From assembly GCA_017398945.1 (NCBI GenBank), contig JAFQES010000027.1, positions 67,404-131,403 on the forward strand: a stretch of 64,000 nucleotides of DNA, read 5' to 3'. This stretch comes from Bacilli bacterium. GTDB lineage: Bacteria > Bacillota_I > Bacilli_A > RF39 > UBA660. The translations under genes and the position numbers were made by a program. The notes below the pieces were generated by a model. The model searched no databases. It saw only the letters and a list, made by a program, of their open reading frames with translations, and had not been told where the DNA came from. This document shows positions 14,559 to 42,881 of the stretch, piece after piece. Position 1 is the stretch's first letter. Every line of letters begins with the position of its first letter.

Positions 14559-14579
14559 TTATAGAAGGGAATTAAAAAC

Positions 14580-25714: not shown

Positions 25715-25738
25715 ATCAACAGAAATGTTGATTTTTTT
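25715..25738 (+). terminator. Rho-independent terminator after gap
   Basis: Stem atcaaca/tgttgat, loop gaaa, T7 run. Confidence 0.65.
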
Positions 25739-25756
25739 ATGTATTTAATTTAAAAT
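25728..25756 (+). promoter_or_regulatory. Candidate promoter (cassette copy 1) for the leader ORF and array copies 1-2
   Basis: TTGATT-N17-TAAAAT. The -35 is formed by the 3' arm of the gap terminator. Same architecture as at 28000 and 38216. Confidence 0.4.
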
Positions 25757-26054: not shown

Positions 26055-26056
26055 AA

Positions 26057-27007
26057 ATGGGATTGTTTGATGATAAAATTGATGAGCAAGAAGAGAAATT
26101 AATTCAAAAAATTGGCAAAGACTTAAATGCTGCAATGGCTATATTTTGTCACAGATTAGTAGACAAACATACAGCAGAGGACTATAGAGAATATTCACGT
26201 CCTCATCAAAGTACGAATGAATATTTAATGGGAGTATATAGTCAAGTTGATTTATCTAGAAGTAATAATGCCTTGACCGTATTATCAAGTGGAGACCATG
26301 TTTTTAATTTGTTATATCATGATGTTTTAAATATAGATACCTTTGATTGCAACAGGTTAACAGAATATTATGCTTTAGGCTTTAAATTAACAGCCATAAA
26401 AGTTCTTACATTTAAGCAATTTGAAGATTTATTTGCTGACCGTGATGATTATGAGCGTAGTATCGAGAAATATGTAATAAGCAAAATGCCCTTTCATTAT
26501 CAATTATTTTGGCAACATCTTTTAGAAAAACGTCAAGAGATTGGTTTTGAAAGACCTACAGTGTTTGATTTTTGCCGAGATGTTGGATACGATCGTTCTC
26601 ACCATTTTGATTATTCAGAAGCGAGAACAAGATATAACACTTTAAATGCCTATCGAAATCCTGATGGTTTTGAAAAAGTAAAAGAAAATTTAAAAAAAGC
26701 TAATATAACTTTTAAAGTATCTGATATTAGAGAAATACCCCAAAAGTTTGGCGCTTATGATTTCATTGAATTATCTAATATTATTGGTGTTTTAATGAAC
26801 TGGATTGAACCAGAACTCTTAATATCTATAATAAAAAATATATATGATAACAATCTAAATGATAATGGCGAAATGATATTTGCATATAGATATAATAGTC
26901 CTACAATAGAGCGAGATGAAGTTTATAATGGTGTTAACTTTGGACGCAAACGAGCACTAAGCATATGGCCGGATTCTGCTGGCTGCTTATCCAAAAAAGG
27001 AAAATAA
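26057..27007 (+). CDS. Array paralog 1/18, DUF3419/BtaA-like SAM-binding-fold protein (family call tentative)
   Basis: HQSTNEYL; LTVLSSGDHVFNL; IDTFDCNRLTEYYALGFKLTAIKVL; YDFIELSNII; NLNDNGEMIF. Confidence 0.8.
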   Translation: MGLFDDKIDEQEEKLIQKIGKDLNAAMAIFCHRLVDKHTAEDYREYSRPHQSTNEYLMGVYSQVDLSRSNNALTVLSSGDHVFNLLYHDVLNIDTFDCNRLTEYYALGFKLTAIKVLTFKQFEDLFADRDDYERSIEKYVISKMPFHYQLFWQHLLEKRQEIGFERPTVFDFCRDVGYDRSHHFDYSEARTRYNTLNAYRNPDGFEKVKENLKKANITFKVSDIREIPQKFGAYDFIELSNIIGVLMNWIEPELLISIIKNIYDNNLNDNGEMIFAYRYNSPTIERDEVYNGVNFGRKRALSIWPDSAGCLSKKGK

Positions 27008-27009
27008 CA

Positions 27010-27888
27010 ATGATAGAAGTGACGCAAAGAGAAAAAGATATTGAAGAAGTTATAAAAAAATACTGTAGTTCAAGAAGTTTAAAAGCAATAGGTTATGATT
27101 ATAGCGAATATGGTAGGTCTTATCATTTCACCAATGAACATTTAATTGAATTATACAACCAAATAGATTTTACAAATTATCATACCGCATTAAGTGTTTT
27201 ATCTAGTGGCGATCACGTTTTTAACATGATTTATAACGGAATGGAACAAGTTGATACGTTTGATAGTAGTAGGTTAACTGAATACTATGCACTAGGTATT
27301 AAAAAAACTGCTATAGAGCAACTAAATTATCAAGAGTTTTTAACATTATTTTCTAATTCTTTATTACGTAATGATAATGAGTTGGCTTTAGAAAAATATG
27401 TATTATCTTGTACACCAAAAGAATATAAATTTTTTTGGGGATCATTTCTCGAAGCTCAAAGAAATTTGGGAGAAGAAAATCCTACAATATTTACACTTTG
27501 TCGTGATGTCGGGATAATTAGAGGAAATAATTTATATATACAAAGAGAAAAAGATTATAATAAGCTTAAAGAAAACTTAAAGCACGCAGAAATAACATAT
27601 ACGAATGCTGACATTAGAGATTTGCCTGAATTATTTAGTAGTTATGACATTATAGCATTATCAAACATAATAAGCGTTTTAGATAGTTACGTTGAGCCAG
27701 GCATTATCCACAATATGATAAAAAGTATTTATGAGTCTAATTTGAATAAATACGGACAAATGATATATGATTACAAATTTAAAGAAGATGTAATAATTGA
27801 TGATGAATATTTTAATGCAATTAATTATGCTCCAAAGCTTATAAGGAAACTAAATGGTGATGAGGCTGCTATTTTAAGAAAAAGATGA
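27010..27888 (+). CDS. Array paralog 2/18
   Basis: YHFTNEHL; LSVLSSGDHVFNM; VDTFDSSRLTEYYALGIKKTAIEQL; YDIIALSNII. ATG at 27010 is chosen because the N-terminus MIEVTQREKDIE aligns with the other copies. Confidence 0.8.
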   Translation: MIEVTQREKDIEEVIKKYCSSRSLKAIGYDYSEYGRSYHFTNEHLIELYNQIDFTNYHTALSVLSSGDHVFNMIYNGMEQVDTFDSSRLTEYYALGIKKTAIEQLNYQEFLTLFSNSLLRNDNELALEKYVLSCTPKEYKFFWGSFLEAQRNLGEENPTIFTLCRDVGIIRGNNLYIQREKDYNKLKENLKHAEITYTNADIRDLPELFSSYDIIALSNIISVLDSYVEPGIIHNMIKSIYESNLNKYGQMIYDYKFKEDVIIDDEYFNAINYAPKLIRKLNGDEAAILRKR

Positions 27889-27986
27889 TAACCTTAATAG
27901 GTTGTCAAAAATAAAAAGCTTGGGTATAGTGAATTTTTAGATTGCTGTAATTCCCATATAAAGTTAGCTAGACTACATCAGAAAAG

Positions 27987-28010
27987 AGTAACTAACAGGT
28001 TGCTTTTTTT
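27987..28010 (+). terminator. Weak terminator after copy 2 (cassette copy 2)
   Basis: 6-bp stem agtaac/gttgct (one G-U pair), loop taacag, T7 run. Confidence 0.35.
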
Positions 28011-28028
28011 ACTTTATTAAGTTAAAAT
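28000..28028 (+). promoter_or_regulatory. Candidate promoter for copies 3 onward (cassette copy 2)
   Basis: TTGCTT-N17-TAAAAT, 26 nt upstream of the copy 3 ATG. SD aagggg. Confidence 0.35.
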
Positions 28029-28054
28029 AATTAACTTAGTTAAGGGGTATTATT

Positions 28055-28924
28055 ATGATTGAAAGAAATAAAGATTTATTAGCCGCTATAAACTTGTATA
28101 ATGAAATGCAAAAATTTAGCTATAATGGATATAAATTTTATGGCTATGGAGCGTGTTATCAACAAACAAATGAAAAATTGTTGGCATTATTAAGCAAAAT
28201 TGATTTATCTAAAACAAATAAGGCTTTGACAGTAACAGCCAGCGGCGATCATATCTTAAATTTGCTTACAAAAGGTATTACCAACATTGATACTTTTGAT
28301 AGTAATCGTTTAACTGAATATTATGCATTAGGATTTAAATTGGTTGCGGCAAAGTGTTTGGATAAGGAACAATTTTTTAAACTATTCACAGAAACTCCCC
28401 ATTCCAAAGAAAATATTGCATTGCAAAAATTTGTAATTTCTTGTGCCCCTGAACAATATCGGTGGTTTTGGCAAAATTATTTTATTTTTTTAGATAATGA
28501 AAAAAATGAGCATCAGGGTATTTTTGAAATATGTCGTAAGAAAGTAGAAAATCATATAGATAATAATATATATCTACAATCTTCTCAAAATTATCTTGCA
28601 ATGCAACAAGCTTTAAATAAATCTAATATAACTTTCAATCATTTGAACGTAACACAGATTCCAGAAAATTTAGGTACTTATGATTTTATTTATTTATCAA
28701 ATATTTTTGAATATCGTCAAAAAATATTTGGTACAAACGATTCGGTAACAGATGTTGCTGAATTGGTAGAGTCAATATATAAAAACAATTTAAATATGAA
28801 TGGTGAATTATTTTATTTATATGTAATATTTAGAAATTATCAAGAAATTATGAATAGTATTAAAATTGCGGAAACGAAAATATATAGAGATAAAAATTTA
28901 AGAGTTTTAAGTTTAAAAAAATAG
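28055..28924 (+). CDS. Array paralog 3/18
   Basis: YQQTNEKL; LTVTASGDHILNL; IDTFDSNRLTEYYALGFKLVAAKCL; YDFIYLSNIF; NLNMNGELFY. Confidence 0.8.
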   Translation: MIERNKDLLAAINLYNEMQKFSYNGYKFYGYGACYQQTNEKLLALLSKIDLSKTNKALTVTASGDHILNLLTKGITNIDTFDSNRLTEYYALGFKLVAAKCLDKEQFFKLFTETPHSKENIALQKFVISCAPEQYRWFWQNYFIFLDNEKNEHQGIFEICRKKVENHIDNNIYLQSSQNYLAMQQALNKSNITFNHLNVTQIPENLGTYDFIYLSNIFEYRQKIFGTNDSVTDVAELVESIYKNNLNMNGELFYLYVIFRNYQEIMNSIKIAETKIYRDKNLRVLSLKK

Positions 28925-28937
28925 AGGTGGTGAAACA

Positions 28938-29816
28938 ATGCGACGAATTTCTGGTTGGGAAAAAGATTTAGCTGGCGTAATAGCTAGAGGTAAAGATATA
29001 GCAATTGATTATCAAAAATATTCTAAGTGTTATCCTTTTACTAACGAAAAATTGAAAGACCTAACATCTTTTATTGATAAAGCTAATGTTAATAAGGCGC
29101 TTTGTGTTTTATCAAGTGGCGATCATGCTTTTAATCTAATTTATCATGGGATAAATAATATAGATACTTTTGATTGTAACCGAATTACCGAGTATTACGC
29201 TTTAGGATTTAAAAGGTATGCAATAGAATGCCTTAGCTATCAACAATTCTGCGATTTCTTTTTTAATGATTCTTCTGAAAACCAATCAATCGAAAAGTAT
29301 ATAATTAGTTGTCTTCCAGAAAAATATAAAAATTTCTGGCAAAGTTATTTTGAGTATCTATTAGAAAATTACAATCCTTTATTATCAAGTAGAAGAAGTG
29401 CAAATATTTTTCGGATATTATGTTATATTGAAGAAAGTATGACTGAAAATAATAACTATCTTTCGAGTGAAGAAGACTACAAAAAGTTACAAAGAAATCT
29501 TTTAAATGCTCAAATTAATTTTAAAGAACTTGATGTAAATGCCCTAAGTCATCAAAAAGAGAAATATGATTTAATAATGTTATCGAATATATTACAAGCT
29601 ATGAAAAAACCATTAATTGGAAAAACAATTGATATTGCTGAAAAAATATTTAAACAAAATTTAAAAGAAAATGGGGAAATAATTTATTTGTATGAATTTT
29701 TTGATAAAGAATTATTAGGAAAAAAAGAAATGGTGTTGGAAAGAACACCTGGTTCACAAAATATAAAATATATTTTAGATGGTAGTTATGCTACTAGTAA
29801 GAAAAAAATAATTTAA
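28938..29816 (+). CDS. Array paralog 4/18
   Basis: YPFTNEKL; LCVLSSGDHAFNL; IDTFDCNRITEYYALGFKRYAIECL; YDLIMLSNIL; NLKENGEIIY. Confidence 0.8.
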   Translation: MRRISGWEKDLAGVIARGKDIAIDYQKYSKCYPFTNEKLKDLTSFIDKANVNKALCVLSSGDHAFNLIYHGINNIDTFDCNRITEYYALGFKRYAIECLSYQQFCDFFFNDSSENQSIEKYIISCLPEKYKNFWQSYFEYLLENYNPLLSSRRSANIFRILCYIEESMTENNNYLSSEEDYKKLQRNLLNAQINFKELDVNALSHQKEKYDLIMLSNILQAMKKPLIGKTIDIAEKIFKQNLKENGEIIYLYEFFDKELLGKKEMVLERTPGSQNIKYILDGSYATSKKKII

Positions 29817-29824
29817 GTGGTGCA

Positions 29825-30703
29825 ATGATAGCTAATATTAATAATGAACAACGTCAAAAAGACTTAGAACAAATACCAAAATTTATAAATGATAGTGATT
29901 TTGAATATAAATTTCAAGAATATTCAGCTATTTACTATCTTACTAATGAAAAGTTATCAAATTTATATAATGAAATTAATTTTACAAAGTACAAGACAGC
30001 TTTAACTGTGTTATCAAGTGGCGATCAAGCTTTTAATTTAGTATTAGAAGGATTAGAAAAAATAGACACTTTTGATTGTAATCGCTTAGCAGAGTATTAT
30101 GCTTTAGGATTTAAAAAAACCGCCATTCAATGTTTAGATTATAAAGATTTTACCAATTTATTTTATCTTCGCCAGAAAAAGCTATATGACTTAGAAAGTG
30201 AAGTAATAAAACATATGCCAGAAGAATATAAACTTTTTTGGAAAGAGTATCGAGAAGAATATAGACAATATTATCCTTATCCTAGTGTATTGGGGTTGGC
30301 TAAAGAACATAATTTTCCTAATGGAAATAATATTTATTTTAGTAAAGAGAGTTATAAATATTTGCAAAAAAGATAAAATGAGGTATTAATTACGTTTACT
30401 TATGCAGAAGTTAAACAATTACCTGAGGTGTTTGGTCAATATGATTTTATATATTTATCTAATATTTTATCATATGATCACTGGGTATTTAATAGTGATG
30501 ATAGAGAATATTTAGCAGAGCAATATGCTAAGTTAGTATCAGATATATACACAAAAAATTTAAATCAAAATGGACTATTAATATATAATTATGGATTTAA
30601 TGGTTTACTAGATAAATATTGTAGTAAAGAAATTGTAGAAAGAAAAGTCACTTATGATTTAGGTAAGTTAAATAGAGCACACGGGTTAAGAAAAATCAAA
30701 TAG
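29825..30703 (+). pseudogene. Array paralog 5/18, interrupted by one in-frame TAA
   Basis: Track ORFs 29825..30376 and 30428..30703 are in the same frame. TAA at 30374-30376 replaces the conserved Leu of LQKR-L. The motifs are intact on both sides (LTVLSSGDQAFNL; YDFIYLSNIL). Confidence 0.75.
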
Positions 30704-30717
30704 AAAGGGAAATATCA

Positions 30718-31614
30718 ATGTTAAGTTTAGGAGAACAAAGAAAAATAGACATTCAAAAAATTTTAGAAATATATGGAAAAGCAGATATTTCTTTAACTGG
30801 TAACTTTTTTGATGAATACTCACGTTTCTATGATTTTACTAATGAAAAACTATTTGGTTTATTTGAATTGTTAAAATTACAGGAAAAAGAATTCGCTTTA
30901 ACAGTTTTATCGAGTGGAGATCATGTTTTTAATTTAATATTACAAGGAATTAATAAAATTATGACCTTTGATTGTAATCGCCTAACAGAATATTATGCTC
31001 TAGGTTTTAAAAAAACTGCTATTGAAATACTAAATTATGAACAGTTTATTGAATTATTTTGTCCGTATGGATATTCAGCGGTATCATCTAAATTAATTGA
31101 ATTAGAAAAAGAAGTTATCAAAAATATGCCACTTATTTATCGCAAATTTTGGGAGAACTTTTTAAATATGCGTAGAGAATATGAATATAATCCGAGTATT
31201 TTTCATTTGACTTATTCAACAAGTAATTTTGCAAAAGCCATCAGTAATAATAAATATCTTTTAAATGCAGAAATGTATAACGCTTTAAAAAGGAAAATAT
31301 CAACTGCTAAAATTGAATTTGTTGCTGCTAATATAACTGATGTCCCCCAATTATTCGGAAGATATGATTATATCGATTTTTCAAATGTATTATATTATTA
31401 TCAAAGGATATTTCCTGAAGAAAGTGCAATGAAAGCTATTAATTTTGTTAAATCGGTTTATGAAAACAACCTCAATGAAGGAGGGCTGTTTAAATATTAT
31501 TATGACTTTGATGGATTAAGACATTTACCAAAGGTTGGTGGACAGATAGAAAAAGAATATGTTTTAGGTTCAGATACAACTTCAATTTTAAAAAGAACAA
31601 TAAATATGAATTAA
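30718..31614 (+). CDS. Array paralog 6/18
   Basis: YDFTNEKL; LTVLSSGDHVFNL; IMTFDCNRLTEYYALGFKKTAIEIL; YDYIDFSNVL; NLNEGGLFKY. Confidence 0.8.
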   Translation: MLSLGEQRKIDIQKILEIYGKADISLTGNFFDEYSRFYDFTNEKLFGLFELLKLQEKEFALTVLSSGDHVFNLILQGINKIMTFDCNRLTEYYALGFKKTAIEILNYEQFIELFCPYGYSAVSSKLIELEKEVIKNMPLIYRKFWENFLNMRREYEYNPSIFHLTYSTSNFAKAISNNKYLLNAEMYNALKRKISTAKIEFVAANITDVPQLFGRYDYIDFSNVLYYYQRIFPEESAMKAINFVKSVYENNLNEGGLFKYYYDFDGLRHLPKVGGQIEKEYVLGSDTTSILKRTINMN

Positions 31615-31622
31615 AAAATAAC

Positions 31623-31651
31623 TTGTAGATTTTAATAACATGCTTTATTAT
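31623..31651 (+). promoter_or_regulatory. Candidate internal promoter upstream of copy 7
   Basis: TTGTAG-N17-TATTAT in the 109-nt spacer. SD agggggag precedes the ATG at 31724. Confidence 0.35.
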
Positions 31652-31723
31652 ATAATGCAACTAGTAATAACAAAGATTAATTTATTTGAAGACCTACAGT
31701 TTTATTTTAGGGGGAGTAAAGTT

Positions 31724-32647
31724 ATGGTAATATCACAACAGCGTAAATTTGACTTGGAAAATATGATTAAAATATATTTAGAAGGTTATCAAGATGGATA
31801 TTTTGGAGTTAATGATGATTTTATAGAATATGCTAGTTTCTATCATTTGACTAATGAGCCTGTTAATAAAATATTTAGTGAAATCGGTTTGAATGAGGTT
31901 CAAAAAGCTTTAAGCGTTCTAGCTAGCGGGGATCAAGTATTTCATATGATTAGTGGCGGGGTTCAAAATATTGATACCTTTGATATAAATCGCTTAACAG
32001 AATATTATGCCCTAGGATTTAAGAAAAGAGCAATAGAATGTTTAAATTATTATGAATTTATGAAGTTATTTGAGTATTATAAAGACTGGGATCTTGAACG
32101 ACATTTTGGCGAAAATAAAGACATAGAAAAGTATGTAATTGAAAATATGGAAGAAGAATACAAATGTTTTTGGAATGAATTCCTTTATGCCGTAAAAGAA
32201 AAAGGATTTGAAGCAAGTATATTTCATTTATCTTGTGAAGCTGATCTTATTGATAGGCAAAATACAAAAAACAATTTATATATGAAAGATGAAAGTGAGT
32301 ATATTAAACTACAAAGAAGACTGAAGGAAGTTAATATATCATATAAGTATTGCTCAATAATGGATGTTCCAACTACATTTGCTAAATATGATTTAATATA
32401 TCTTTCTAATATTATGGATTATTATCGTTCTTTTTATGGAAATAATAATAGACCAATGGATGATGCTAGAAATTTAATTAAAGCCATTTACACTCAAAAT
32501 TTAAATCCAAATGGCGAAATAATATTAACGGAAATGCAAAGAAAATTTTCCCCCAATGAATTTTTAAAAGAAATGATTAATCATCCGATCATTAATAATT
32601 GTCTATTTACAGCTTATGGAATAAAAAAGAAGCGAAAATTAAAGTAA
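31724..32647 (+). CDS. Array paralog 7/18
   Basis: MVISQQRKFDL; YHLTNEPV; LSVLASGDQVFHM; IDTFDINRLTEYYALGFKKRAIECL; YDLIYLSNIM. ATG at 31724 has a strong SD; the track's longer start has none. Confidence 0.8.
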   Translation: MVISQQRKFDLENMIKIYLEGYQDGYFGVNDDFIEYASFYHLTNEPVNKIFSEIGLNEVQKALSVLASGDQVFHMISGGVQNIDTFDINRLTEYYALGFKKRAIECLNYYEFMKLFEYYKDWDLERHFGENKDIEKYVIENMEEEYKCFWNEFLYAVKEKGFEASIFHLSCEADLIDRQNTKNNLYMKDESEYIKLQRRLKEVNISYKYCSIMDVPTTFAKYDLIYLSNIMDYYRSFYGNNNRPMDDARNLIKAIYTQNLNPNGEIILTEMQRKFSPNEFLKEMINHPIINNCLFTAYGIKKKRKLK

Positions 32648-32667
32648 ATAAATAGGGGGCAATACAA

Positions 32668-33561
32668 ATGGCAATATCAGAACAAAGAAAACAAGATTTA
32701 TATAAAACTATTGAGTTATATTTAAATATATATCAAGAAGGAAGACTTGAATTAAAAAGCGAATTTTCGAAATATGCCGGATATTATTATATAACTAATG
32801 AGCCTATATGCGAAATATTTAATATAAGAACAAAATATGAAAACAAAAAAATTCTAAGTGTATTAGCTGGCGGAGATCATATATTTGAAATGATATTTAA
32901 AGGAGCTAGTAATGTAGATACATTTGATATTAATGCTTTATTAGAATATTACACAATTGGATTTAAAAAAAGAGCAATAGAGTGTTTAGCTTATCAAGAA
33001 TTTCTTGATTTATTTGATTTTTCATATGATGGACTAGAAAATAAGTATTATAATATAAAAACTGAAATAGAAGACTATGTTGTTAAAAATATGGATGAAG
33101 AATATAATTGGTTTTGGCAAGAAATAAAACGCATTCTAAAAGATTACGGATATCAAGCAAGCGTATTTCACTTTGCTTTAAATATTAAACAAAAAGAATT
33201 TAATAAACCAAGTTTCTTGAAAAATGAAGATAACTATATAATTCTTCAAAATAAATTAAAATCTACAATTATAAATTTTCAACAAGCAAATATAATAGAC
33301 CTACCAATAAATTTTTCTAAATATGATTTAATATATTTATCAAATATCTTAGATTATAGGGAACAAGAATTTGCTAAAATACTATTAACTGATATATATA
33401 ATAATAACTTACATAGAAATGGCCAAATAATATTTACAGATTTATGTAGCTATTTTAATGAAGAAATATATGAATGTGTTCCAGGGGCAGAAAAAATAAA
33501 AAAATGCTTTGATAGCGCGGGGCTACTTAGTTATTCATTAAAGAAGAGGAAGATTAAATGA
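32668..33561 (+). CDS. Array paralog 8/18
   Basis: MAISEQRKQDL; LSVLAGGDHIFEM; VDTFDINALLEYYTIGFKKRAIECL; YDLIYLSNIL; NLHRNGQIIF. Confidence 0.8.
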   Translation: MAISEQRKQDLYKTIELYLNIYQEGRLELKSEFSKYAGYYYITNEPICEIFNIRTKYENKKILSVLAGGDHIFEMIFKGASNVDTFDINALLEYYTIGFKKRAIECLAYQEFLDLFDFSYDGLENKYYNIKTEIEDYVVKNMDEEYNWFWQEIKRILKDYGYQASVFHFALNIKQKEFNKPSFLKNEDNYIILQNKLKSTIINFQQANIIDLPINFSKYDLIYLSNILDYREQEFAKILLTDIYNNNLHRNGQIIFTDLCSYFNEEIYECVPGAEKIKKCFDSAGLLSYSLKKRKIK

Positions 33562-34493: not shown

Positions 34494-34499
34494 AATGTC

Positions 34500-34528
34500 T
34501 TGTTATTTAATCAAAATCAATATATAAT
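34500..34528 (+). promoter_or_regulatory. Candidate internal promoter upstream of copy 10
   Basis: TTGTTA-N17-TATAAT. SD aaggggg before the ATG at 34557. Confidence 0.45.
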
Positions 34529-34556
34529 ATGAAATTAATCAAAAAGGGGGATTTAG

Positions 34557-35471
34557 ATGGTCATATCAACGCAAAGAGAAAATGACTTGCAAAACACTAT
34601 AGATTTATATTTAAGTATTTATAAAGATAAGAAAAAAGGTCGTTTAGATGATTTTGTTGAGTATGCTGGTTTTTATCATATTACAAATGAAAAAGCTAGT
34701 GAAATAATTGAAAAAACAACAGTTACCGATAATATGAAAGCTTTATGTGTTTTAGCTGGAGGAGATCAAGCTTTTAATTTTATTAATGCTGGTGTAAAAA
34801 ATATAGACACTTTTGATATAAACAGATTAACAGAGTATTATGCGCTAGGATTTAAAAAAAGAGCAGTAGAATGTTTAAGTTATGCTGAGTTTATTAAACT
34901 TTTTAGTTATAATCAGGGATTATATATTAGATCACATAATCATTTGCAACCAGAAATAGAAAAATATGTTATTGAAAATATGGAAGAAGAATATAAATGG
35001 TTTTGGCAAGAATTGTTCTATGCATTAATTCAAGAAGAATTCGATCCTAGTATCTTTCATTTATCAATCTTTACCGGTCCTAAAGATATAACTAAAAACA
35101 ATTATGCGAAAGACGAAGAAACATATAAAAACTTTCAAAAGTTATTAAGAGAAGCTAAGATAACATTCAATCAATCTTCCATAACTGAGCTTCCAGAAAA
35201 ATTTGGTATATATGATTTAGTTTATTTATCAAATATTCTGGATTATCCAAGAGATTTTTATGGTGACAAAGAAAACCCTTTATATTCTGCATTAGAGTTA
35301 TTAAATAGAATTTATGAACAGAATTTAAATGTTTCGGGCGAAATAATAATGACCTACTTAACTGGTTCATTTATCCCTTCACTTTATAAAAATCAGTACT
35401 ATAAAAATAATTTTGAAGAAATTATTCTTAATACCGAAAGAGAACATGCTTACAGATTATTAAAAAAATAA
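34557..35471 (+). CDS. Array paralog 10/18
   Basis: MVISTQRENDL; LCVLAGGDQAFNF; IDTFDINRLTEYYALGFKKRAVECL; YVIENMEEEYKWFWQEL; YDLVYLSNIL. Confidence 0.8.
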   Translation: MVISTQRENDLQNTIDLYLSIYKDKKKGRLDDFVEYAGFYHITNEKASEIIEKTTVTDNMKALCVLAGGDQAFNFINAGVKNIDTFDINRLTEYYALGFKKRAVECLSYAEFIKLFSYNQGLYIRSHNHLQPEIEKYVIENMEEEYKWFWQELFYALIQEEFDPSIFHLSIFTGPKDITKNNYAKDEETYKNFQKLLREAKITFNQSSITELPEKFGIYDLVYLSNILDYPRDFYGDKENPLYSALELLNRIYEQNLNVSGEIIMTYLTGSFIPSLYKNQYYKNNFEEIILNTEREHAYRLLKK

Positions 35472-35483
35472 TGGGGTGTTAGA

Positions 35484-36407
35484 ATGATAACAGAACAACG
35501 TAAAAAAATCATAATCAATGATTTAAATGAAGCAATAAAATTGTTTCAAAGAATAAAAAATGATGACGGGCCTGGAAGTGCCGAATATTGTGATTATCAT
35601 CCGTTTTATGAAAATACAAATGAACATTTAGCTCATTTACTAAGACCTATTACAATTCCTTCAGATAGTAAGATATTAACTGTATTAGCAAGTGGAGATC
35701 AACCTTTTAATTTTATTAACAATGGAGCTACTTATGTTGATACATTTGATATAAATAAACTAACAGAGTATTATGCTTTAGGATTTAAAAGGACAGCGTT
35801 ACTTTCGTTATCTTATGAACAATATTTAAGTTTATTTTTTTCCAATGATAACGAGGAAGCAGAGCAACTAGAAAATTATGTAATTGAAAGTATGCCAGAG
35901 GACTACAAATGTTTTTGGAAAGAATATAAATATGTTATAAAAAACTTAGGGTATAAAGCAAGTGCTTTTGATTTGTCGATAGATGATATAAGAGATGATT
36001 ATTATATTAAAAATAATTATTTATTAAATGAAAAAGTTTACAAAGAATTTCAACAAAAACTACTCAATGCTAAAATAAATTTTACTCATGCTAATGTAAC
36101 AGATCTATCAACAAAATTTTCTCAATATAATTTAGTATATTTATCTAATGTTATGGACTATTATAAAACGGTATTATATACTGACGTATCACCACAAGAA
36201 GCGTTATTAAAAGCAGTTGAGTTAACAAAAGAAATATATGCCAAAAATGTATTAAATCCCGGAGAATTAATGTTTAGTTTCTTTGGTACAGGGTATGCCA
36301 ACGAAGTTTTTATTGACCCAACTGTTGAAGGTGAAAAACGAATGTACTATGCGCCATATACTTACCCAAGTCATAGAGGGTTGAAAAAGGGGAAGGGCTT
36401 ATGGTAA
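35484..36407 (+). CDS. Array paralog 11/18
   Basis: LTVLASGDQPFNF; VDTFDINKLTEYYALGFKRTALLSL; YNLVYLSNVM. Confidence 0.8.
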   Translation: MITEQRKKIIINDLNEAIKLFQRIKNDDGPGSAEYCDYHPFYENTNEHLAHLLRPITIPSDSKILTVLASGDQPFNFINNGATYVDTFDINKLTEYYALGFKRTALLSLSYEQYLSLFFSNDNEEAEQLENYVIESMPEDYKCFWKEYKYVIKNLGYKASAFDLSIDDIRDDYYIKNNYLLNEKVYKEFQQKLLNAKINFTHANVTDLSTKFSQYNLVYLSNVMDYYKTVLYTDVSPQEALLKAVELTKEIYAKNVLNPGELMFSFFGTGYANEVFIDPTVEGEKRMYYAPYTYPSHRGLKKGKGLW

Positions 36408-37318
36408 AAACAATATCTGAACAAAGAAGAAAAGATTTAGACGAGGCTATAGAGCTTTATTTATCTGCTTATCAAAAGAAAGATTTTGTAAACGATGATT
36501 TTGTTGAATATGCCGGTTATTATCGAATTACTAATGAACCATTTAGTAAATTTTTAGCCAAAGCCAATTTTTCTGATACAACAAAAACGCTCAGTGTCTT
36601 ATCTAGTGGAGATCAAGTGTTTGAAATGGTACGAAAAGGAATTAAAAAAATAGATACCTTTGATATAAATAGAATGACTGAGTACTTTGCATTAGGTTTT
36701 AAAAAACGTGCTATAGAATGCTTGACATATGAACAATTTTTAAGCCTTAACAAATACGATAGGATCGTTACTAAGCATAATAATGAAAATCTTGAAATAG
36801 AAAAATATGTAATTGAAAATATGGAAGAAGAATATAAGTGGTTTTGGCAAGAATTAATAGCTAGCTTAAAAGGTGAAGGTTTTAATGTTAGTGTATTTCA
36901 TTTTGTTATAGATTATCTCTATTTAACAAAATTCCATTATAGTAGAAATCCTTATATGGCAGATAAAGAAAAATATAAAGAATTACAACAAAAATTGTTA
37001 AAGGCCAAGATAACTTTTCAGCAAGCTGATATAAAAGAACTTCCTAAAAAATTTCAACAATATGACTTGATATATTTATCTAATATCTTAGAATATCATG
37101 AAGATATTTTTGAAAAATCTGGTTTCCCACCTGAAGAAGCAATTAAGTTATTAAAAAAAATTTATAATAAAATGTTAAATAATTACGGTGAAATCATTTT
37201 AACTGATTTAATGAATTGGTTTTATCCAGAATTTTGCGGAGAAAAGTTATTTAAAGAAAATCATGAGTTAATAATCGATGGATCAGATAGAGGATATATA
37301 TTAAAAAAGAAAAAATAA
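36401..37318 (+). CDS. Array paralog 12/18
   Basis: 7-nt overlap with copy 11. LSVLSSGDQVFEM; IDTFDINRMTEYFALGFKKRAIECL; YVIENMEEEYKWFWQEL; YDLIYLSNIL. Confidence 0.8.
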   Translation: MVKTISEQRRKDLDEAIELYLSAYQKKDFVNDDFVEYAGYYRITNEPFSKFLAKANFSDTTKTLSVLSSGDQVFEMVRKGIKKIDTFDINRMTEYFALGFKKRAIECLTYEQFLSLNKYDRIVTKHNNENLEIEKYVIENMEEEYKWFWQELIASLKGEGFNVSVFHFVIDYLYLTKFHYSRNPYMADKEKYKELQQKLLKAKITFQQADIKELPKKFQQYDLIYLSNILEYHEDIFEKSGFPPEEAIKLLKKIYNKMLNNYGEIILTDLMNWFYPEFCGEKLFKENHELIIDGSDRGYILKKKK

Positions 37319-37330
37319 CTAGGAGGAATT

Positions 37331-38199
37331 ATGAATAAACAGCAAAAAAAGATATTGAAATGACTAAAGACTTCTATCGTAAATTAATTCTTAATTGTAA
37401 TATAGGAAATAGCTTTGAAACATATTCTAAAGTTTATTCCTTCACTAATGAAAATCTTGCTGATCTTTATCCTTTGATACATTTTGAAAAATATAATAGC
37501 GCTCTTACAGTTTTATCAAGTGGAGACCATGCCTTTAATCTAATTTATATGGGAATTGATAAAGTAGATACATTTGATACAAATCGCTTAACTGAATACT
37601 ATGCATTAGGTTTAAAAAAGACAGCTATCCAATGCTTAAATTATAATGAATTTATGAAATTATTTTCTGGAAAAATAGAACGAAAACAAATTGACCTGCT
37701 TAATTATGTGATTCAAAATATGGAACCAGAATATCGTAATTATTTTGAAACATTAATTGCATACTTTAAAAAATATTCTTTTGACTATGTAATTCATTTA
37801 TTTAGGAGCGATACTGATATAAGTCAAAAAGATATAAAAAACATCTATCTTCGTTCCGGTGTTAATTATCACAAAAAGCAAAAAAGATTAGCTAATACTA
37901 CTATTAGTTTTAAACATTGTGATGTGTTAAATATCCCAAAAGAATTTGGAAAGTATGATTTAGTAGAGCTATCTAATATTTTAGGAGTAAGTGTGAACAG
38001 AAACTGGCTACAGAAAAAAAGAGTTTATGATTTGCTTCGTCAAATTTATGATAATAACTTAAAACATGGAGAACTTCTGTTTGATTATTCTTGGGGAAAT
38101 GATTTTAGGACAGTAGGGGAATGTAGTGATATTTTTGATAATGTTAGTTATGCAAACAAAAAAGAATATGCTCACATGAACGATCTTATACGAAGTTAA
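37331..38199 (+). CDS. Array paralog 13/18, 5' end out of frame across an A7 tract
   Basis: SD aggagg serves the ATG at 37331, which stops after 10 codons. The body (ATG at 37360, no SD) is in the -1 frame. A7 at 37344-37350; an A8 would give MNKQQKKDIEMTKDF... The body motifs are intact (LTVLSSGDHAFNL; VDTFDTNRLTEYYALGLKKTAIQCL; YDLVELSNIL). Confidence 0.7.
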
Positions 38200-38226
38200 A
38201 AAAAACAACAATAGGTTGTTTTTTTT
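38198..38226 (+). terminator. Terminator after copy 13 (cassette copy 3)
   Basis: Stem acaac/gttgt extended by A-run/T-run pairing, loop aatag, T8 run. Confidence 0.55.
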
Positions 38227-38244
38227 GCTCTTTTATTATAAAAT
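38216..38244 (+). promoter_or_regulatory. Candidate promoter for copies 14-18 (cassette copy 3)
   Basis: TTGTTT-N17-TAAAAT. The -35 lies in the terminator 3' arm. SD aagggg before the ATG at 38273. Confidence 0.35.
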
Positions 38245-38272
38245 ACAAACTTAACTGGTAAGGGGCATTTTT

Positions 38273-39172
38273 ATGGGAAACTTAGAAGAACAAAGATTAG
38301 AAGATTTAAGGCAAATTAGAGATAGAATTAAGAATTGTAATTTATCACGTGATTTTGAAGAATATGCTGTGTTTTATTATTTTTCAAACGAACAAATAAA
38401 CAGGAAATATGCTCAAATAGATTTTACAAATTATCATACCGCCTTAACTGTGTTATCAAGCGGAGATCATGCGTTTAATATAATATACAAAGGCATTGAC
38501 CTTGTGGATACTTTTGATATAAATCGTATGACGGAATATTATGCCCTAGGATTTAAAAAGCGTGCCATAGAATGTTTAAGTTTTGAACAGTTTTACTCTT
38601 TATATGATTTTGGAAATATTCAAAGATTACTTGAATTAGAAGATGAAGTTATTAAGTGCATGGATAGAGAATACAAGAAATTTTGGGAATCTTTTAAATA
38701 TGAATTAAATTGTTTAGGAGAAAGAATTCCAACTGTTATACGTTGGACTAAGGAAATTGCCAAACCTCACGGGAATTACTATAATAGTTATTTAGAAAAT
38801 GAAGAATCATATAAACGTTTACAAAAAAGATTAGAAACTGCTAAAATTACTTTTACCCAAGGAAATATAACAGAAATACCAACTAGATTTGGAACATATG
38901 ATTTTATTGAATTATCAAACATATTAACTTATCAACGTCATATATTTCCCCATAGTTTGGCAAAATATAATACAACAAAATTAGTAAGAAAAATTTATGA
39001 GCATAATTTAAAAGGTTTAGGGACAATGCTTTACCAAACCGGAGGAACAATAGTAGGTAATAACCCATTAAGTTGTTTTGCGCCTAAACTTCTAAAAAGA
39101 GCAAAAAATAACTTTGATAAAAACAATACTGAATCATGGGTTTATGGACTTCAAAAAGGGGACAGGAAATGA
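38273..39172 (+). CDS. Array paralog 14/18
   Basis: YYFSNEQI; LTVLSSGDHAFNI; VDTFDINRMTEYYALGFKKRAIECL; YDFIELSNIL. Confidence 0.8.
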   Translation: MGNLEEQRLEDLRQIRDRIKNCNLSRDFEEYAVFYYFSNEQINRKYAQIDFTNYHTALTVLSSGDHAFNIIYKGIDLVDTFDINRMTEYYALGFKKRAIECLSFEQFYSLYDFGNIQRLLELEDEVIKCMDREYKKFWESFKYELNCLGERIPTVIRWTKEIAKPHGNYYNSYLENEESYKRLQKRLETAKITFTQGNITEIPTRFGTYDFIELSNILTYQRHIFPHSLAKYNTTKLVRKIYEHNLKGLGTMLYQTGGTIVGNNPLSCFAPKLLKRAKNNFDKNNTESWVYGLQKGDRK

Positions 39173-40043
39173 ATTTGGTAGAACAAAGATTAGAAGATTT
39201 AAAACAATTAAAAAAATTATTAAAACGAATAGTCTGCCATATGACTTTAAAGAGTATGCTGCCTTTTATTAATTTTCTAATGAACGAATAAACCAAAAAT
39301 ATTCTGAAATTGATTTTACAAATTACCAAACAGCATTGTGCGTTTTATCAAGAGGGGATCATGCTTTTAATGCAATATGTCACGGTATAGATAAAGTAGA
39401 TACTTTTGATGTGAATCGCTTAACAGAGTATTATGCAATAGGCTTTAAAAAAAGAGCAATAGAGTGTTTGAATTTTGAACAATTTTGTTCTTTGTATATT
39501 CTTCATGAGAAAAAATTAATGGATTTAGAAGATGAAGTAACTAAAAACATGGATTAAGTATATAAAAAGTTTTGGGAAACTTATATTTACGAAACGAAAT
39601 GTTTAGGTGAGTCTTTTCTGAGTGTATTATGGTGGAGGAAAGAGTATAAATATCCTGAAGGTAACATCTACAATGCTTATTTAGAAAATGAAGAATCATA
39701 TAAATATTTACAAAAACGATTAGAGGTTGCAAAAACAACTTTCACTTAAGCGAATATAACTGAATTGCCATCAAAATTTAAAGACTATGATTTTATTGAA
39801 TTATCAAATATATTATCTTATGGAGAATATATTTTTGGGAATTATATTAAATATCGATCAAGTAATTTAATAAGCGAGATTTATGACTGTAATTTAAAAA
39901 ACAAAGGAACAATGATATATCAAACAAGAGGATGTGATCCCTTAAATCCTTTGCTTACTCCAATGCGTCTTAAAAGGGCAAGGAAAACCTTTGCCGAAAG
40001 TGATGGCTGGTGTGTGTATATGGTCTTCAGAAAGGTGGGATAA
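39169..40043 (+). pseudogene. Array paralog 15/18, decayed duplicate of copy 14
   Basis: ATGA overlap with copy 14. One frameshift near 39215-39235 plus three in-frame TAA codons (FY*FSNE, NMD*VYKKFW, TFT*ANITE). Still aligns with copy 14 along its full length. Confidence 0.8.
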
Positions 40044-40044
40044 A

Positions 40045-40983
40045 ATGACAATATCAGATCAAAGAAAAATAGATTTACAAAAGGCTATAGAAGTTTATAT
40101 GCGTAAGTTAAAAAGAAACAATCCGAACATAAATGGTGGGGAGTATGGCTTGTATTATCGATTTACTAATGAACCCTTTGTTAACTTTGTTAACAGGGTA
40201 AATGTTTCTGCAAATATTGATGTGCTTACTGTGCTTGCTAGCGGAGACCAAGCTTTTAATTTTATTCAATCCGGAGCTAATCATATTGATACATTTGACA
40301 TTAATCGCTTAACGGAATATTTTGCCCTTGGTTTTAAAAAGACTGCTATTCAAGTATTAAATTATGAGAATTTTTTAAAATTATTTAATTATAATAGCTT
40401 AAAACCACAAAATACTCCAGACCTAGAATTAGAAAAAAGTATAATAGAATCATGTCCAGAAGAATACAAATGGTTTTGGCAAGAATTCACGCATATTTTA
40501 AAAGATAATAACTTGAATCCCAGTGTATTTGAAATATCCGAGGGATTTCATTCCAATATAGTGAAAAAACATCGTTGTAATAATTATATGAATAATGAAG
40601 AAAATTATAAATTGTTACAAAAGAGATTATTAGAAACGACAATAACATTTCAGCCTTTAGACTTAGCCGATGTATCTAAAGCAATCAAGCAAAAATATGA
40701 CTATGTATTTATATCCAATATTTTAGATGCTTTTGCTACCCATACTACTAATAATATTCCTAATTCTTTAAAAGTAGCGTTAAAAATGTTTTTAGATATT
40801 TATCGCCATAATGTAAAAAGAAATGGAGAATTAACATTTTCAACATTTGATTTTGGAGGACTTGGTGATGAGTTTATCGATATGTATAATTTGTTAGATA
40901 ATAAAAATGGTGAAAAAGTTATGTATCCGGGTGAAGTACCTCTAATATTTGGTTTGCGAAAAAGTAAAAAAAAAATAAAATAA
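40045..40983 (+). CDS. Array paralog 16/18
   Basis: MTISDQRKIDL after the SD aaaggtggg; LTVLASGDQAFNF; IDTFDINRLTEYFALGFKKTAIQVL; YDYVFISNIL. Confidence 0.8.
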   Translation: MTISDQRKIDLQKAIEVYMRKLKRNNPNINGGEYGLYYRFTNEPFVNFVNRVNVSANIDVLTVLASGDQAFNFIQSGANHIDTFDINRLTEYFALGFKKTAIQVLNYENFLKLFNYNSLKPQNTPDLELEKSIIESCPEEYKWFWQEFTHILKDNNLNPSVFEISEGFHSNIVKKHRCNNYMNNEENYKLLQKRLLETTITFQPLDLADVSKAIKQKYDYVFISNILDAFATHTTNNIPNSLKVALKMFLDIYRHNVKRNGELTFSTFDFGGLGDEFIDMYNLLDNKNGEKVMYPGEVPLIFGLRKSKKKIK

Positions 40984-41029
40984 GAAATTATATACTAACT
41001 ACAATGTTCATATAATGAAAGGAAACTAA

Positions 41030-41947
41030 ATGATGAAAATATCAGAACAAAGAAGAATAGATTTAGATAAAGCTATTAACACCTACCTTGAAAGATTTGA
41101 AAAATCAAATATTGATATTCAAAGAAAGTTTTTAGAGTACTCTGGATATTATAAATTTACTAACGAGTATTTAGGTAGATTAATATTAAAAAAGAATTAT
41201 TCCGCCGAATTTTTAAGCGAGAAAAGACTTTTAACTGTATTATCAAGTGGCGATCAAGCGTTTAACTTTATTAATCAAGGAGTAATGACGGTTGATACTT
41301 TTGATATAAATCGTTTAACTGAATATTTTGCCCTAGGATTTAAAAAAGTTGCATTAGAAACTTTAACATATGATCAATTTGAAAATTTATTTAAAAACTT
41401 TCTTGTTGATAGCGCTCGCGATTTGGAAAAGGGGGTAATTGAAAACGCGCCAGAAGAATACAAGTGGTTTTGGACTGAGTTTAAATATGCCTTAAAACAA
41501 AATGGGTTTCCAAATCCAAGTGTCTTTGACTTAGCTAAAAGAATGGATTATTACAGAGTAAAATCGTCAAATGTTAATCCCTATTTGTGCAGTGTAGATG
41601 ATTACAAAAATTTTCAACAGCAACTATCCAAAGCAAAAATAACTTTTCAACAATGTGATATTAAAGAGTTGCCTACAAAACTTGCTAAGTACGATTTAGT
41701 GTTGTTATCTAATATTGTTGAATATTATGGAAAAACAAACAAACCAATATCTGAACAATTATTAGAAGCTCAAACGGTTACACAAGATATATTTAATAAC
41801 AATTTAAACCTTGGCGGAGAAATGGTGCTTTTCGCATTTTATCAATCATTTATTGGAAAAGTGTGTCGCAACTTAAATATTAATTGCGCTAAGGATATCT
41901 TTTATTTGCTTGAAGATAAGGTATATAGTCTAAAAAGGAGCTTGTAA
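41030..41947 (+). CDS. Array paralog 17/18
   Basis: MMKISEQRRIDL; LTVLSSGDQAFNF; VDTFDINRLTEYFALGFKKVALETL; YDLVLLSNIV. Confidence 0.8.
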   Translation: MMKISEQRRIDLDKAINTYLERFEKSNIDIQRKFLEYSGYYKFTNEYLGRLILKKNYSAEFLSEKRLLTVLSSGDQAFNFINQGVMTVDTFDINRLTEYFALGFKKVALETLTYDQFENLFKNFLVDSARDLEKGVIENAPEEYKWFWTEFKYALKQNGFPNPSVFDLAKRMDYYRVKSSNVNPYLCSVDDYKNFQQQLSKAKITFQQCDIKELPTKLAKYDLVLLSNIVEYYGKTNKPISEQLLEAQTVTQDIFNNNLNLGGEMVLFAFYQSFIGKVCRNLNINCAKDIFYLLEDKVYSLKRSL

Positions 41948-42842
41948 TGGAATCGTTAGAAAAAGCTCAATTATTAAAAGATATCGAAAAAAGTGTTAGC
42001 GTTATTAAAACATCTGCTAAATTTAGTGAATATAGTAAAGTATATCCATATACTAATGAAAATCTTATTAAAAAATATAGTTTAATAAATGAGGGTGATT
42101 ATCAAACGGCGTTAACTGTCTTATCAAGTGGAGATCATCTTCTTAATTTAGTTATGAATGGTACGTCCCATATAGATACTTTTGATGTAATAAAATGACA
42201 GAATATTATGTGATGGATATTAAAATACCGGCCATTTTAAATATGACGTATGAACAATATATGCAGTTTTACAAAACATTGCTTACGCCTGGAATTAATG
42301 AAGATAAAATATTTGCTGTTGTAAAAGGCGCAGAAGAAAAATATAAATACTTTTGGGAAGAGTTCTATCGCATATATTATGACCAAAATAATTTGAGATT
42401 TGATTTTGAAAATTTATTTATTTCTGAATTTGATAGGTTGCATTTTAATAAATATCTTCGAAGTTCTAGTGATTATCAAAAAATGCAATCTTGTTTAAAA
42501 GATGCTACAATAACGTTTAAACATGCAGATGTTACAACAATCCCATTAGAATTTAAAACATATGATTTAATAGACGTCTCAAATATACTAAATTATTATG
42601 AAACAATTTTTAAAGCATATAATTATCCGCGAGAAGAAAGAAAAAAATTAGTTGCTGAAATTGTTTCTAAAAATTTAATCCAAGACGGAGTCATATTCTA
42701 TGATTACTTTTTAGGGACAGGTTTTTATGAAGCGATAAGACAAACGCGTGCAGTGATGCTAGAAAATACTTCTCATTTTAGTGTTGAGTGCACAAATGAG
42801 CTTGCTTTAGGTTTAACTAAAAAGAAAAATAGCAACTTGTAA
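41947..42842 (+). pseudogene. Array paralog 18/18, single-base frameshift
   Basis: Track ORFs 41947..42198 and 42195..42842 are the two halves. The frame breaks inside the DTFDV-N-KMTEYY motif (gatgtaataaaatgaca where gatgtaAataaaatgaca is expected). Confidence 0.75.
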
Positions 42843-42864
42843 ATAACTTTAATTAAGGTATAAT
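42837..42864 (+). promoter_or_regulatory. Candidate promoter for pgk-tpiA
   Basis: TTGTAA-N16-TATAAT spanning the end of copy 18. Confidence 0.4.
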
Positions 42865-42881
42865 TATAATAGGTGATAATA

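Follow-up and report, generated by a model that had tools for sequence, protein, structure and literature searches.

The 64,000-nucleotide stretch of DNA analyzed here (the window) carries, at positions 25780 to 42842, a tandem array of 19 head-to-tail units of a single gene family, all on the + strand, of which 15 are intact and four are decayed. The account of this array that we favor, with some reserve, is a birth-and-death expansion of a stand-alone cytosolic transferase, predicted from its sequence and structure models to depend on S-adenosylmethionine (SAM), with copies that would differ in acceptor specificity. The first-pass annotation had described 18 copies, 14 of them intact, as soluble enzyme-like paralogues held in many versions by selection. 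The array is real and that description of it stands, but the counts were off: the 18 consecutive + strand units at 26057 to 42842 were recovered by both the ORF listing and a family hidden Markov model (HMM) (E values of 1e-96 to 1e-120 for intact copies), and a remnant at 25780 to 26054, which had been overlooked, is the 19th unit.

The array lies between two glycolysis genes, gapA (encoding GAPDH; 24710 to 25714, + strand) upstream and pgk (42873 to 44018, + strand) downstream, with no flanking transposase or integrase, as had been reported. The gapA product shares 95% amino acid identity with its orthologue in RGIG3081, a related goat-gut metagenome-assembled genome (MAG), in which Gp_dh_N/C domains were found. 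Directly 3′ of the gapA stop codon is a possible weak intrinsic terminator (25717 to 25742, + strand), a hairpin followed by a run of seven T residues (ATCAACA-GAAA-TGTTGAT, then TTTTTTT; ΔG of −7.8 kcal/mol), which is identical in RGIG3081 and which a consensus terminator scan did not pick up because it has too few G-C pairs. Such a terminator could possibly make the array its own transcription unit. A promoter-like site (TTGTAA-16-TATAAT) lies at 42837 to 42864, 5′ of pgk. The host is an uncultured spore-forming gut bacterium.

The intact units, given here with their protein length, their orthologue in RGIG3081, and the identity to it, are c01 (26057 to 27007; 316 amino acids [aa]; r02, 90% aa), c02 (27010 to 27888; 292 aa; r03, 77%), c03 (28055 to 28924; 289 aa; r04, 68%), c04 (28938 to 29816; 292 aa; r05, 54%), c06 (30718 to 31614; 298 aa; r07, 88%), c07 (31724 to 32647; 307 aa from the conserved start; r08, 96%), c08 (32668 to 33561; 297 aa; r09, 86%), c09 (33558 to 34493; 311 aa; r10, 94%), c10 (34557 to 35471; 304 aa; r11, 84%), c11 (35484 to 36407; 307 aa; r13, 80%), c12 (36401 to 37318; 305 aa; r14, 96%; the copy used for structure models), c13 (37360 to 38199; 279 aa; r19, 84%), c14 (38273 to 39172; 299 aa; r20, 74%), c16 (40045 to 40983; 312 aa; r23, 88 to 89%), and c17 (41030 to 41947; 305 aa), which has no orthologue in RGIG3081. 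The remnant c00, an orthologue of r01, matches the family HMM at positions 220 to 290 (E = 2.7e-9); it retains a start codon and ∼10 N-terminal codons (MDKIQLQKDI, matching the N terminus of r01), followed by a C-terminal fragment in another frame (25809 to 26054), and positions 10029 to 10627 of RGIG3081 have no counterpart in the window. Three further units are broken: c05 (29825 to 30703; r06, 90%) is a pseudogene with one in-frame TAA at 30374; c15 (39169 to 40043; closest to r21, 67%) is a pseudogene with in-frame TAA codons at 39270, 39555, and 39747 and an N-terminal frameshift; and c18 (41947 to 42842; r24, 93% when read through) is frameshifted by a 1-nt deletion near 42188, which is covered by one assembly only and could be a sequencing error.

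The junctions between units are those listed in the first-pass annotation, with ATGA overlaps at 33558 (c08 with c09) and 39169, TAATG at 41947, a 7-nt overlap at 36401, and gaps of 1 to 2 nt at 27008 and 40044. Each copy has its own start codon, and a Shine-Dalgarno sequence is present in 14 of the 15 intact copies, c13 being the only one without a clear one. This tight same-strand packing, together with the individual ribosome-binding sites, points to coexpression as one or a few long transcripts.

The family had been considered unnamed, but profile matches place it in Pfam DUF3419 (PF11899), which is matched by 93 of 95 diverse members at E values below 1e-3 (best, 1.4e-19). Against a gathering score of 28.2 bits, five of seven copies score 28.9 to 47.2 bits, while c01 (28.1) and c17 (24.5) fall just under it. 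The alignment is limited to the first third of the model (positions ∼9 to 145 of 385) rather than its full length, and the C-terminal half gives weak matches to Methyltransf_31/25/11 and CheR instead of DUF3419. Judged by these profile matches, the array family is a short (∼300-aa), divergent subclade of DUF3419; NCBI labels its relatives “DUF3419 family protein” or “class I SAM-dependent methyltransferase.”

The class I fold is recognized by a Rossmann-like sheet, a glycine loop after strand 1, and an acidic residue ending strand 2. AlphaFold2 models (pLDDT of 81 and 90.6; pTM of 0.86 and 0.91) have a seven-strand topology, with strands in c12 at residues 62 to 66, 83 to 88, 203 to 208, 221 to 226, 259 to 268, 288 to 293, and 296 to 302, and the predicted structures show the sheet, the glycine loop, the strand 2 acidic residue, and a post-strand 4 motif expected of a class I SAM-dependent transferase. 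Models and alignments together give each copy a seven-stranded SAM-binding-type core, an N-terminal cap carrying a Y-x3-Y-x2-TNE motif, a helical lid of ∼80 to 95 aa inserted between helix B and strand 3, and a conserved basic C-terminal tail. The motifs noted earlier agree with the alignment consensus, and E46, G70, D71, D88, K101, S227, and N228 (c12 numbering) are invariant in the 95 diverse members. The earlier statement that the proteins lack transmembrane stretches and signal peptides also held, with a maximum 19-residue Kyte-Doolittle mean below 1.6 in every copy.

A Foldseek search with the models returned the class I SAM methyltransferase fold at a probability of 1.0, with modest TM-scores to solved methyltransferases (0.36 to 0.46). 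The top matches were small-molecule N-methyltransferases and an uncharacterized Leptospira interrogans protein, 6ULO. The latter is the best structural match of the high-confidence model (E = 4e-6, TM-score of 0.45), at 12 to 14% identity and with no sequence-level match to the family profile. The closest solved folds of described function, of the NNMT/PNMT type and OvoM/OvoA C-terminal domain (E of about 1e-5), share the class I core and an N-terminal Tyr-rich cap over the cofactor, but they are only 9 to 15% identical (TM-scores of 0.35 to 0.46) and lack the helical insert; the OvoA C-terminal domain also shows a weak sequence match to strands 3 and 4 of the family. We conclude that the family probably uses SAM.

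Pairwise amino acid identity among intact copies is 28 to 50% (median, 35%), and the copies appear to be individually maintained. For the 14 pairs of intact copies with a positional orthologue in RGIG3081, dN/dS is 0.12 to 0.25, compared with 0.03 to 0.06 in the flanking genes, and the paralogue lineages persist across three genomes, with 80 to 87% identity in the third. RGIG3081 holds 24 copies at the same site versus 19 in the window, the two differing by gains and losses of whole units. The family is confined to uncultured gut Bacilli, most genomes having one to four copies. Copies from the window, RGIG3081, and L002 (47 sequences), from the RUG genomes (41), and from L003 (7) form exclusive clades, and the arrays of other genomes lie in unrelated housekeeping contexts; on this comparison, the family is judged to have expanded independently at least three times. 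No conserved partner gene pointing to a pathway was found in the neighborhoods across lineages.

In the mechanism that we propose, old tandem duplications would have given rise to the copies, purifying selection would keep each of them, and copies would be lost through deletion, nonsense mutation, or frameshift, with gains differing between strains. Each intact copy would bind SAM via the invariant E46, G70-D71, D88, K101, and S227-N228 and transfer its methyl or 3-amino-3-carboxypropyl group to a small-molecule or lipid acceptor. Residues 21 to 30, 121 to 130, 171 to 180, 231 to 250, and 271 to 300 show the highest sequence entropy and the surroundings of the motifs the lowest, and the copies seem to differ mainly in the lid loops, the stretch that follows strand 4, and the C-terminal part. 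These variable segments may help to form the acceptor pocket, in which case the copies together would offer a range of acceptor specificities. Region-level dN/dS, with no region above 0.3, does not point to diversifying selection in either the lid or the C terminus, so that the argument for different specificities is drawn solely from the divergence and retention of the copies. A battery of specificity variants, one of the roles suggested from the start, is what we infer as the best reading.

Large bacterial tandem arrays typically encode surface antigens or immunity proteins or consist of mobile DNA; here, a core metabolic locus of bacteria represented only by gut metagenomes harbors 15 to 24 diverged copies, each of them conserved, of what is predicted to be a cytosolic enzyme. 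Their repeated expansion would mark a function under recurrent ecological demand in never-cultured lineages, and as soluble 300-aa proteins they offer an experimentally tractable entry point. Their study could give a Pfam DUF a function, reveal whether nonmethyl SAM chemistry is common among gut bacteria, and shed light on how these bacteria deal with dietary or host compounds or build their membranes. More speculatively, the short DUF3419 clade might represent a previously undescribed class of tailoring enzymes dependent on SAM, perhaps transferring aminocarboxypropyl groups, that uncultured gut Bacilli have repeatedly amplified to 10- to 24-member batteries. Their acceptors would be chemically diverse compounds from the diet, the host, or the cell envelope, plant phenolics and scavenged lipids being examples. 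We give this extension a rather low probability; if true, the array would be the bacterial equivalent of the detoxification or tailoring clusters of eukaryotes and a major adaptive feature of the lineages that carry it.

To our knowledge, BtaA is the only characterized member of DUF3419, and a search of the DUF3419 literature surfaced no other. The copies could accordingly be true BtaA-type enzymes, with diacylglycerol or another glycerolipid receiving the 3-amino-3-carboxypropyl group of SAM. Membrane lipids would then be remodeled into phosphorus-free lipids of the homoserine or betaine type, and individual paralogues would be adapted to different species of scavenged lipid. The two share the Pfam family by HMM, the N-terminal block from the cap through strand 1 and strand 2 to helix B, the predicted class I SAM-binding fold, and a stand-alone soluble organization. 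Several neighborhoods are consistent with a lipid role. The L003 array is followed directly by Zn-dependent phospholipase C-like genes, whose products could supply diacylglycerol, and such genes also occur ∼5 kb from the RUG arrays. Envelope and lipid loci adjoin some arrays, namely uppS-cdsA in the RUG genomes and, in another lineage, genes read from sequence and synteny as mreC-mreD. The basic C-terminal tail would suit binding at a membrane interface. However, BtaA has ∼400 aa, the DUF3419 model is ∼100 aa longer than the copies and is matched by them over its N-terminal third only, and BtaA is encoded by one gene with a btaB partner in a proteobacterium or alga, whereas the array family has 15 to 24 diverged tandem copies in an anaerobic gut Firmicute. 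Within the window, neither a btaB-like gene nor any other methyltransferase gene adjoins the array and no phospholipase C-like gene was found; moreover, neighborhoods differ between lineages, the closest solved folds are small-molecule N-methyltransferases, and one lipid head-group reaction would hardly call for 15 to 24 versions. We therefore consider this explanation unlikely. A HEAT-methyltransferase fusion is encoded at 47940 to 49736, 5 kb downstream of the array.

It is also improbable, in our estimate a shade more so, that the copies are protein, rRNA/tRNA, or DNA methyltransferases, for example, a modification set protecting against toxins, antibiotics, or phages. Foldseek does return Dam-type DNA methyltransferases, the rRNA methyltransferase AviRa, fibrillarin, DOT1L, and METTL18 at similar E values, and both the weak similarity to CheR, a protein methyltransferase, around strands 3 and 4 and the basic tail would fit such substrates. 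These fold matches are nevertheless all at the generic class I level (TM-scores below 0.5), and the post-strand 4 motif is S-N-I-L rather than (D/N/S)PP(Y/F/W), the catalytic motif of amino-methyltransferases. Restriction or specificity partner genes are absent, and scans with PADLOC and PHROGs were negative (two short chance-level PADLOC matches, no PHROG), with no copy found on viral contigs. Overall, no link of the array to toxins, phages, mobile elements, or known defense systems was found.

The first-pass annotation had further raised the idea of an immunity role, in which the paralogues would act as antidotes to polymorphic toxins that a nearby type VII secretion system (T7SS) exports; we found no support for it and regard it as very unlikely. 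The T7SS itself is real, a small locus 11 kb upstream with an EssC-like ATPase (9283 to 13908), a weak YukD-like ORF, and two WXG100 genes (14262 to 14873, where the locus ends). Same-family immunity arrays are known beside T7SS toxins, such as the EsaG/DUF600 array downstream of EsaD in Staphylococcus aureus, which resembles ours in its tandem, diverged, operon-tight cytoplasmic paralogues and strain-variable copy number. Here, however, the proteins are twice as large, with conserved enzyme motifs and invariant cofactor residues, and positional orthologues are under purifying rather than arms-race selection. Between the two loci lie about 10 housekeeping genes, carried on both strands, and a Pfam scan of the larger ORFs around the array, of which three gave no match, identified no LXG, nuclease, or other toxin domain. 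The single-copy ancestors and the arrays of other genomes likewise have housekeeping neighbors and no recurrent T7SS-type neighbor. The array is flanked by gapA and pgk, lies outside the T7SS locus, and has no identified toxin gene directly beside it.

It is hardly credible that the assembler created the array or that it is amplified DNA without function: although the window, judging by its close relatives, all of them metagenome or MAG contigs, seems to come from a metagenome-assembled contig, four units are decayed, and the c18 frameshift has no second assembly behind it, the same array occupies the same site in a related genome, dN/dS is far below 1, and the copies share only 60 to 77% DNA identity, making collapse or expansion by the assembler unlikely. 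An independent metagenome assembly (L049) is collinear with window positions 26401 to 37663 (11.3 kb) at 99.93% identity without gaps and contains the c05 nonsense codon at 30374; the collapse on long-read reassembly that had been a concern is not expected. Surface-variation lipoproteins or silent cassettes were also considered and rejected, given the absence of a hydrophobic N terminus, the presence of start codons and Shine-Dalgarno sequences, and the lack of inverted repeats as needed for an invertible or shufflon-type switch. Adjacent copies are slightly more alike than others.

The interval between gapA (24710-25714) and pgk (42873-44018, followed by tpiA) is occupied exactly by the array, and same-strand ORFs run unbroken through 25.8-42.8 kb of the window. 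From the ORF listing together with a family hidden Markov model (HMM), 15 units (c01-c04, c06-c14, c16, and c17) are intact; the HMM, built from these 15 units, matches every one of them with E values of 1e-96 to 1e-120 and also detects all of the broken pieces. Four decayed units bring the total to 19. One TAA stop interrupts c05 at 30374, three TAA codons and a frameshift at the N terminus disrupt c15, and c18 has lost 1 nt near 42188; c00 (25780-26054) is a remnant in which the start codon and ∼10 N-terminal codons are followed, across an internal deletion, by a C-terminal fragment in another frame. The first-pass annotation had recognized a run of 18 units with 14 intact; the units themselves and the predominance of intact copies hold, but c00 had been overlooked and the intact count is 15. 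Its description of the junctions proved correct in all details on rechecking of the sequence, and the copies have their own translation signals. The divergence of the copies, described there as mostly well under 50 percent identity outside the motifs, corresponds to 28 to 50% amino acid identity between intact copies (median, 35%) and 60 to 77% identity at the DNA level. An alternative genetic code was rejected as the origin of the broken copies, since their in-frame stops are TAA, with which ordinary genes also mostly end; the genetic code of the organism is standard. Neither Rfam nor a tRNA scan returned a match in the window, and no convincing inverted repeats or shufflon-like structure were found.

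The family, previously regarded as unnamed, is already present in Pfam as DUF3419; of 95 diverse members, 93 match this model (best E value, 1.4e-19). Close relatives are labeled by NCBI as "DUF3419 family protein" or "class I SAM-dependent methyltransferase," generic SAM-methyltransferase models of Pfam match the C-terminal half of the copies weakly, and NCBIfam gave only chance-level matches plus a weak one to the OvoA C-terminal domain. The enzyme described in the literature as the canonical DUF3419 member is BtaA, which moves the 3-amino-3-carboxypropyl group of SAM onto diacylglycerol. Compared with the BtaA-type DUF3419 model, the window copies are ∼100 amino acids shorter and align to its first third only. 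The family forms a short, divergent branch within a known Pfam domain of unknown function, and its fold is ordinary. Confident AlphaFold models of c12 (pLDDT of 81 with 15 sequences; pLDDT of 90.6 and pTM of 0.91 with 95 sequences) show a class I fold with seven strands, an N-terminal helix, a cap bearing a Y-x3-Y-x2-TNE motif, and, between helix B and strand 3, a helical insert of ∼80 to 95 residues. To our knowledge, no DUF3419 member other than BtaA has been characterized, and a literature search surfaced none.

Seven residues (E46, G70, D71, D88, K101, S227, and N228 in c12 numbering) are invariant in the 95 diverse members, and they map to the cap, the loop following strand 1, the point where strand 2 ends, helix B, and the motif following strand 4. 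In class I enzymes, SAM is held and the acceptor is positioned at these same sites. Sequence variation is concentrated in the lid loops, the post-strand-4 segment, and the C-terminal region (variable segments include residues 121-130, 171-180, 231-250, and 271-300), while the cofactor motifs are fixed. As had been noted at first pass, no copy has a hydrophobic N terminus or a transmembrane segment, and the proteins are soluble. We propose that the copies are active SAM-dependent transferases which would share a common chemistry and differ in their acceptor; the group moved from SAM could be methyl or aminocarboxypropyl, and the acceptor could be a soluble metabolite or a lipid. With the c12 models, Foldseek returned only generic class I relatives (E values of ∼1e-5 to 1e-6; TM scores of 0.36 to 0.46), headed by an uncharacterized Leptospira protein (6ULO) and the small-molecule N-methyltransferases NNMT and OvoM/OvoA. 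A role of the copies as macromolecule methyltransferases is disfavored. Two family profiles searched against PDB sequences revealed no relative with a solved structure (best matches, OvoM with an E value of 0.56 and CheR with 0.11). One protein of 611 amino acids (P0222) is a natural fusion of two family modules in a single polypeptide, a hint at possible dimeric function of these enzymes or at interaction between neighboring paralogues.

The host is a spore-forming Firmicute of low GC content (∼28%) and carries spoIIR, gerQ, and spo0A. The gap-pgk-tpiA-gpmI cluster is interrupted twice, since both the array and spo0A, the master sporulation regulator (44851-45615; Response_reg and Spo0A_C domains), are inserted, the latter between tpiA and gpmI. 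An AT-rich hairpin with a T7 run 3' of gapA (25717-25742) is conserved in the window and in RGIG3081, a related goat gut metagenome-assembled genome (MAG), and a good promoter-like site precedes pgk, so that the array may be its own transcription unit. A consensus scan for promoters and terminators was uninformative in this AT-rich DNA, with counts no different from those of shuffled sequences. Directly upstream of gapA, a 547-amino-acid protein (23049-24692) combines a C-terminal PRK/uridine kinase domain with a long N-terminal half that has no assignment; a protein with 92% amino acid identity occupies the same position in RGIG3081. Five kilobases downstream of the array, a 598-amino-acid protein (47940-49736) is a fusion of HEAT repeats and a class I methyltransferase domain; by Pfam, this protein has no relationship to the array family.

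No transposase or integrase adjoins the array, as stated at first pass, and neither does any phage gene. The type VII secretion system (T7SS) reported upstream is a real but small locus (9283-14873). It comprises an EssC-like ATPase of 1,541 amino acids (9283-13908) in which FHA and FtsK/SpoIIIE domains are recognized, an ORF of 83 amino acids with weak similarity to YukD, and a pair of WXG100 genes. Among the ORFs scanned, none was recognized as an EssB/EsaA-type membrane gene or an LXG toxin. Between this locus and gapA, both strands encode, according to Pfam and the RGIG3081 annotation, a TetR family regulator, a tilS-like PP-loop ATPase, gerQ, yitT, an ABC ATPase and FtsX pair, an M23 peptidase, whiA, clpP, and a PRK family kinase. 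The view that the array is a set of T7SS immunity genes is disfavored. PADLOC, PHROGs, a viral fold library, and viral contigs revealed no specific defense or phage link for the family, and the viral contigs searched contained no copy of it.

The array is not an assembly artifact, since L049, a contig from an independent metagenome assembly, aligns collinearly with window positions 26401-37663 at 99.93% identity, gapless and including the c05 stop, and RGIG3081, from goat rectum, holds 24 copies at the same position between flanking proteins that are 92 to 95% identical. The two arrays are collinear and differ by whole units: r12, r15-r18, and r22 of RGIG3081 are missing from the window, r01 is a remnant there, and c17 is found in the window only. 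Positional orthologues are 54 to 96% identical versus 92 to 95% for prk, gap, and pgk, and their dN/dS is 0.12 to 0.25 versus 0.03 to 0.06 for the flanking genes. Region-wise dN/dS found no diversifying selection in the lid or C terminus, with no protein region above 0.3. In a third genome (L002), the eight copies match particular RGIG3081 paralogues at 80 to 87% identity. Together with the positional orthologues and their dN/dS, this indicates that the duplications are old and that each paralogue lineage is kept by purifying selection, relaxed relative to core genes, in line with the earlier proposal of selection to keep many versions. The array evolves by birth and death, with units gained and lost between strains and without an arms-race signature. 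The dS of positional orthologues varies ∼19-fold along the array, from 0.08 (c07) to 1.46 (c04), with flanks at 0.4 to 1.4, suggesting that array segments have recombined or been exchanged between strains.

An exhaustive profile search retrieved 223 cluster representatives with E values of <1e-30 and ∼2,000 with E values of <1e-10. In scans of genomes and metagenomes, the short clade appeared exclusively in uncultured gut Bacilli, with record titles such as "Mycoplasma sp. CAG:776," "Acholeplasma sp. CAG:878," Candidatus Caccenecus, and rumen "Erysipelotrichaceae," from goat, rabbit, chicken, mouse, and human hosts. Most loci have 1 to 4 copies and a few have arrays of 6 to 16; in the rumen MAG RUG10970, two arrays of 16 and 12 account for at least 28 copies, and a third contig adds one more. 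A neighbor-joining tree of 151 members contains three exclusive clades, namely, window-RGIG3081-L002 (47 copies), rumen (41), and the 7-copy array L003 (7), so that the family has expanded independently three times or more. The organization is unusual, in that as many as 24 tandem copies of a predicted cytosolic enzyme, diverged and each conserved individually, lie within a glycolytic gene cluster; the convergent expansions in related uncultured lineages are likewise unusual. We found no description of such an organization in the searchable literature and no paper on DUF3419 arrays or 6ULO. Although it offers a solid, experimentally tractable lead, the array does not amount to a new kind of system.

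Neighbor-gene clustering over ∼40 loci gave no conserved partner gene, only lineage-specific housekeeping synteny, which is gap/pgk in the window lineage (context gene names without Pfam confirmation are read from sequence and synteny). In the single-copy context, a gltX-like gene and the family gene are followed by NUDIX hydrolase, RNHCP zinc ribbon, and homoserine O-acyltransferase (HTS/MetA-like) genes, the last three Pfam confirmed. This block is conserved around single-copy members (L004, L012, L015, L017, L023, L024, L027, L028, L030, L031, L034, L035, and others), and the NUDIX gene sometimes overlaps the family stop codon. The HTS/MetA-like neighbor attracts attention because aminocarboxypropyl transfer would give homoserine derivatives. 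Another context has mreC/mreD-like genes, an M23 peptidase, and a site-2-protease-like gene. The independently expanded rumen "Erysipelotrichaceae" arrays have Pfam-confirmed cotE, for outer spore coat morphogenesis, immediately upstream (L039, 5129-5674; L045, 8517-9062) and S16-, uppS-, cdsA-, and rseP-like genes downstream. Zn-dependent phospholipase-C-like genes lie ∼5 kb upstream of these arrays (L039, 13-708; L045, 3116-3826) and directly downstream of the 7-copy array (L003, 11985-14078); none was found in the window, and they were seen in these two other lineages only. Given these genes and the envelope and lipid genes nearby, a link of the family to lipid (diacylglycerol) may be considered a weak lead.
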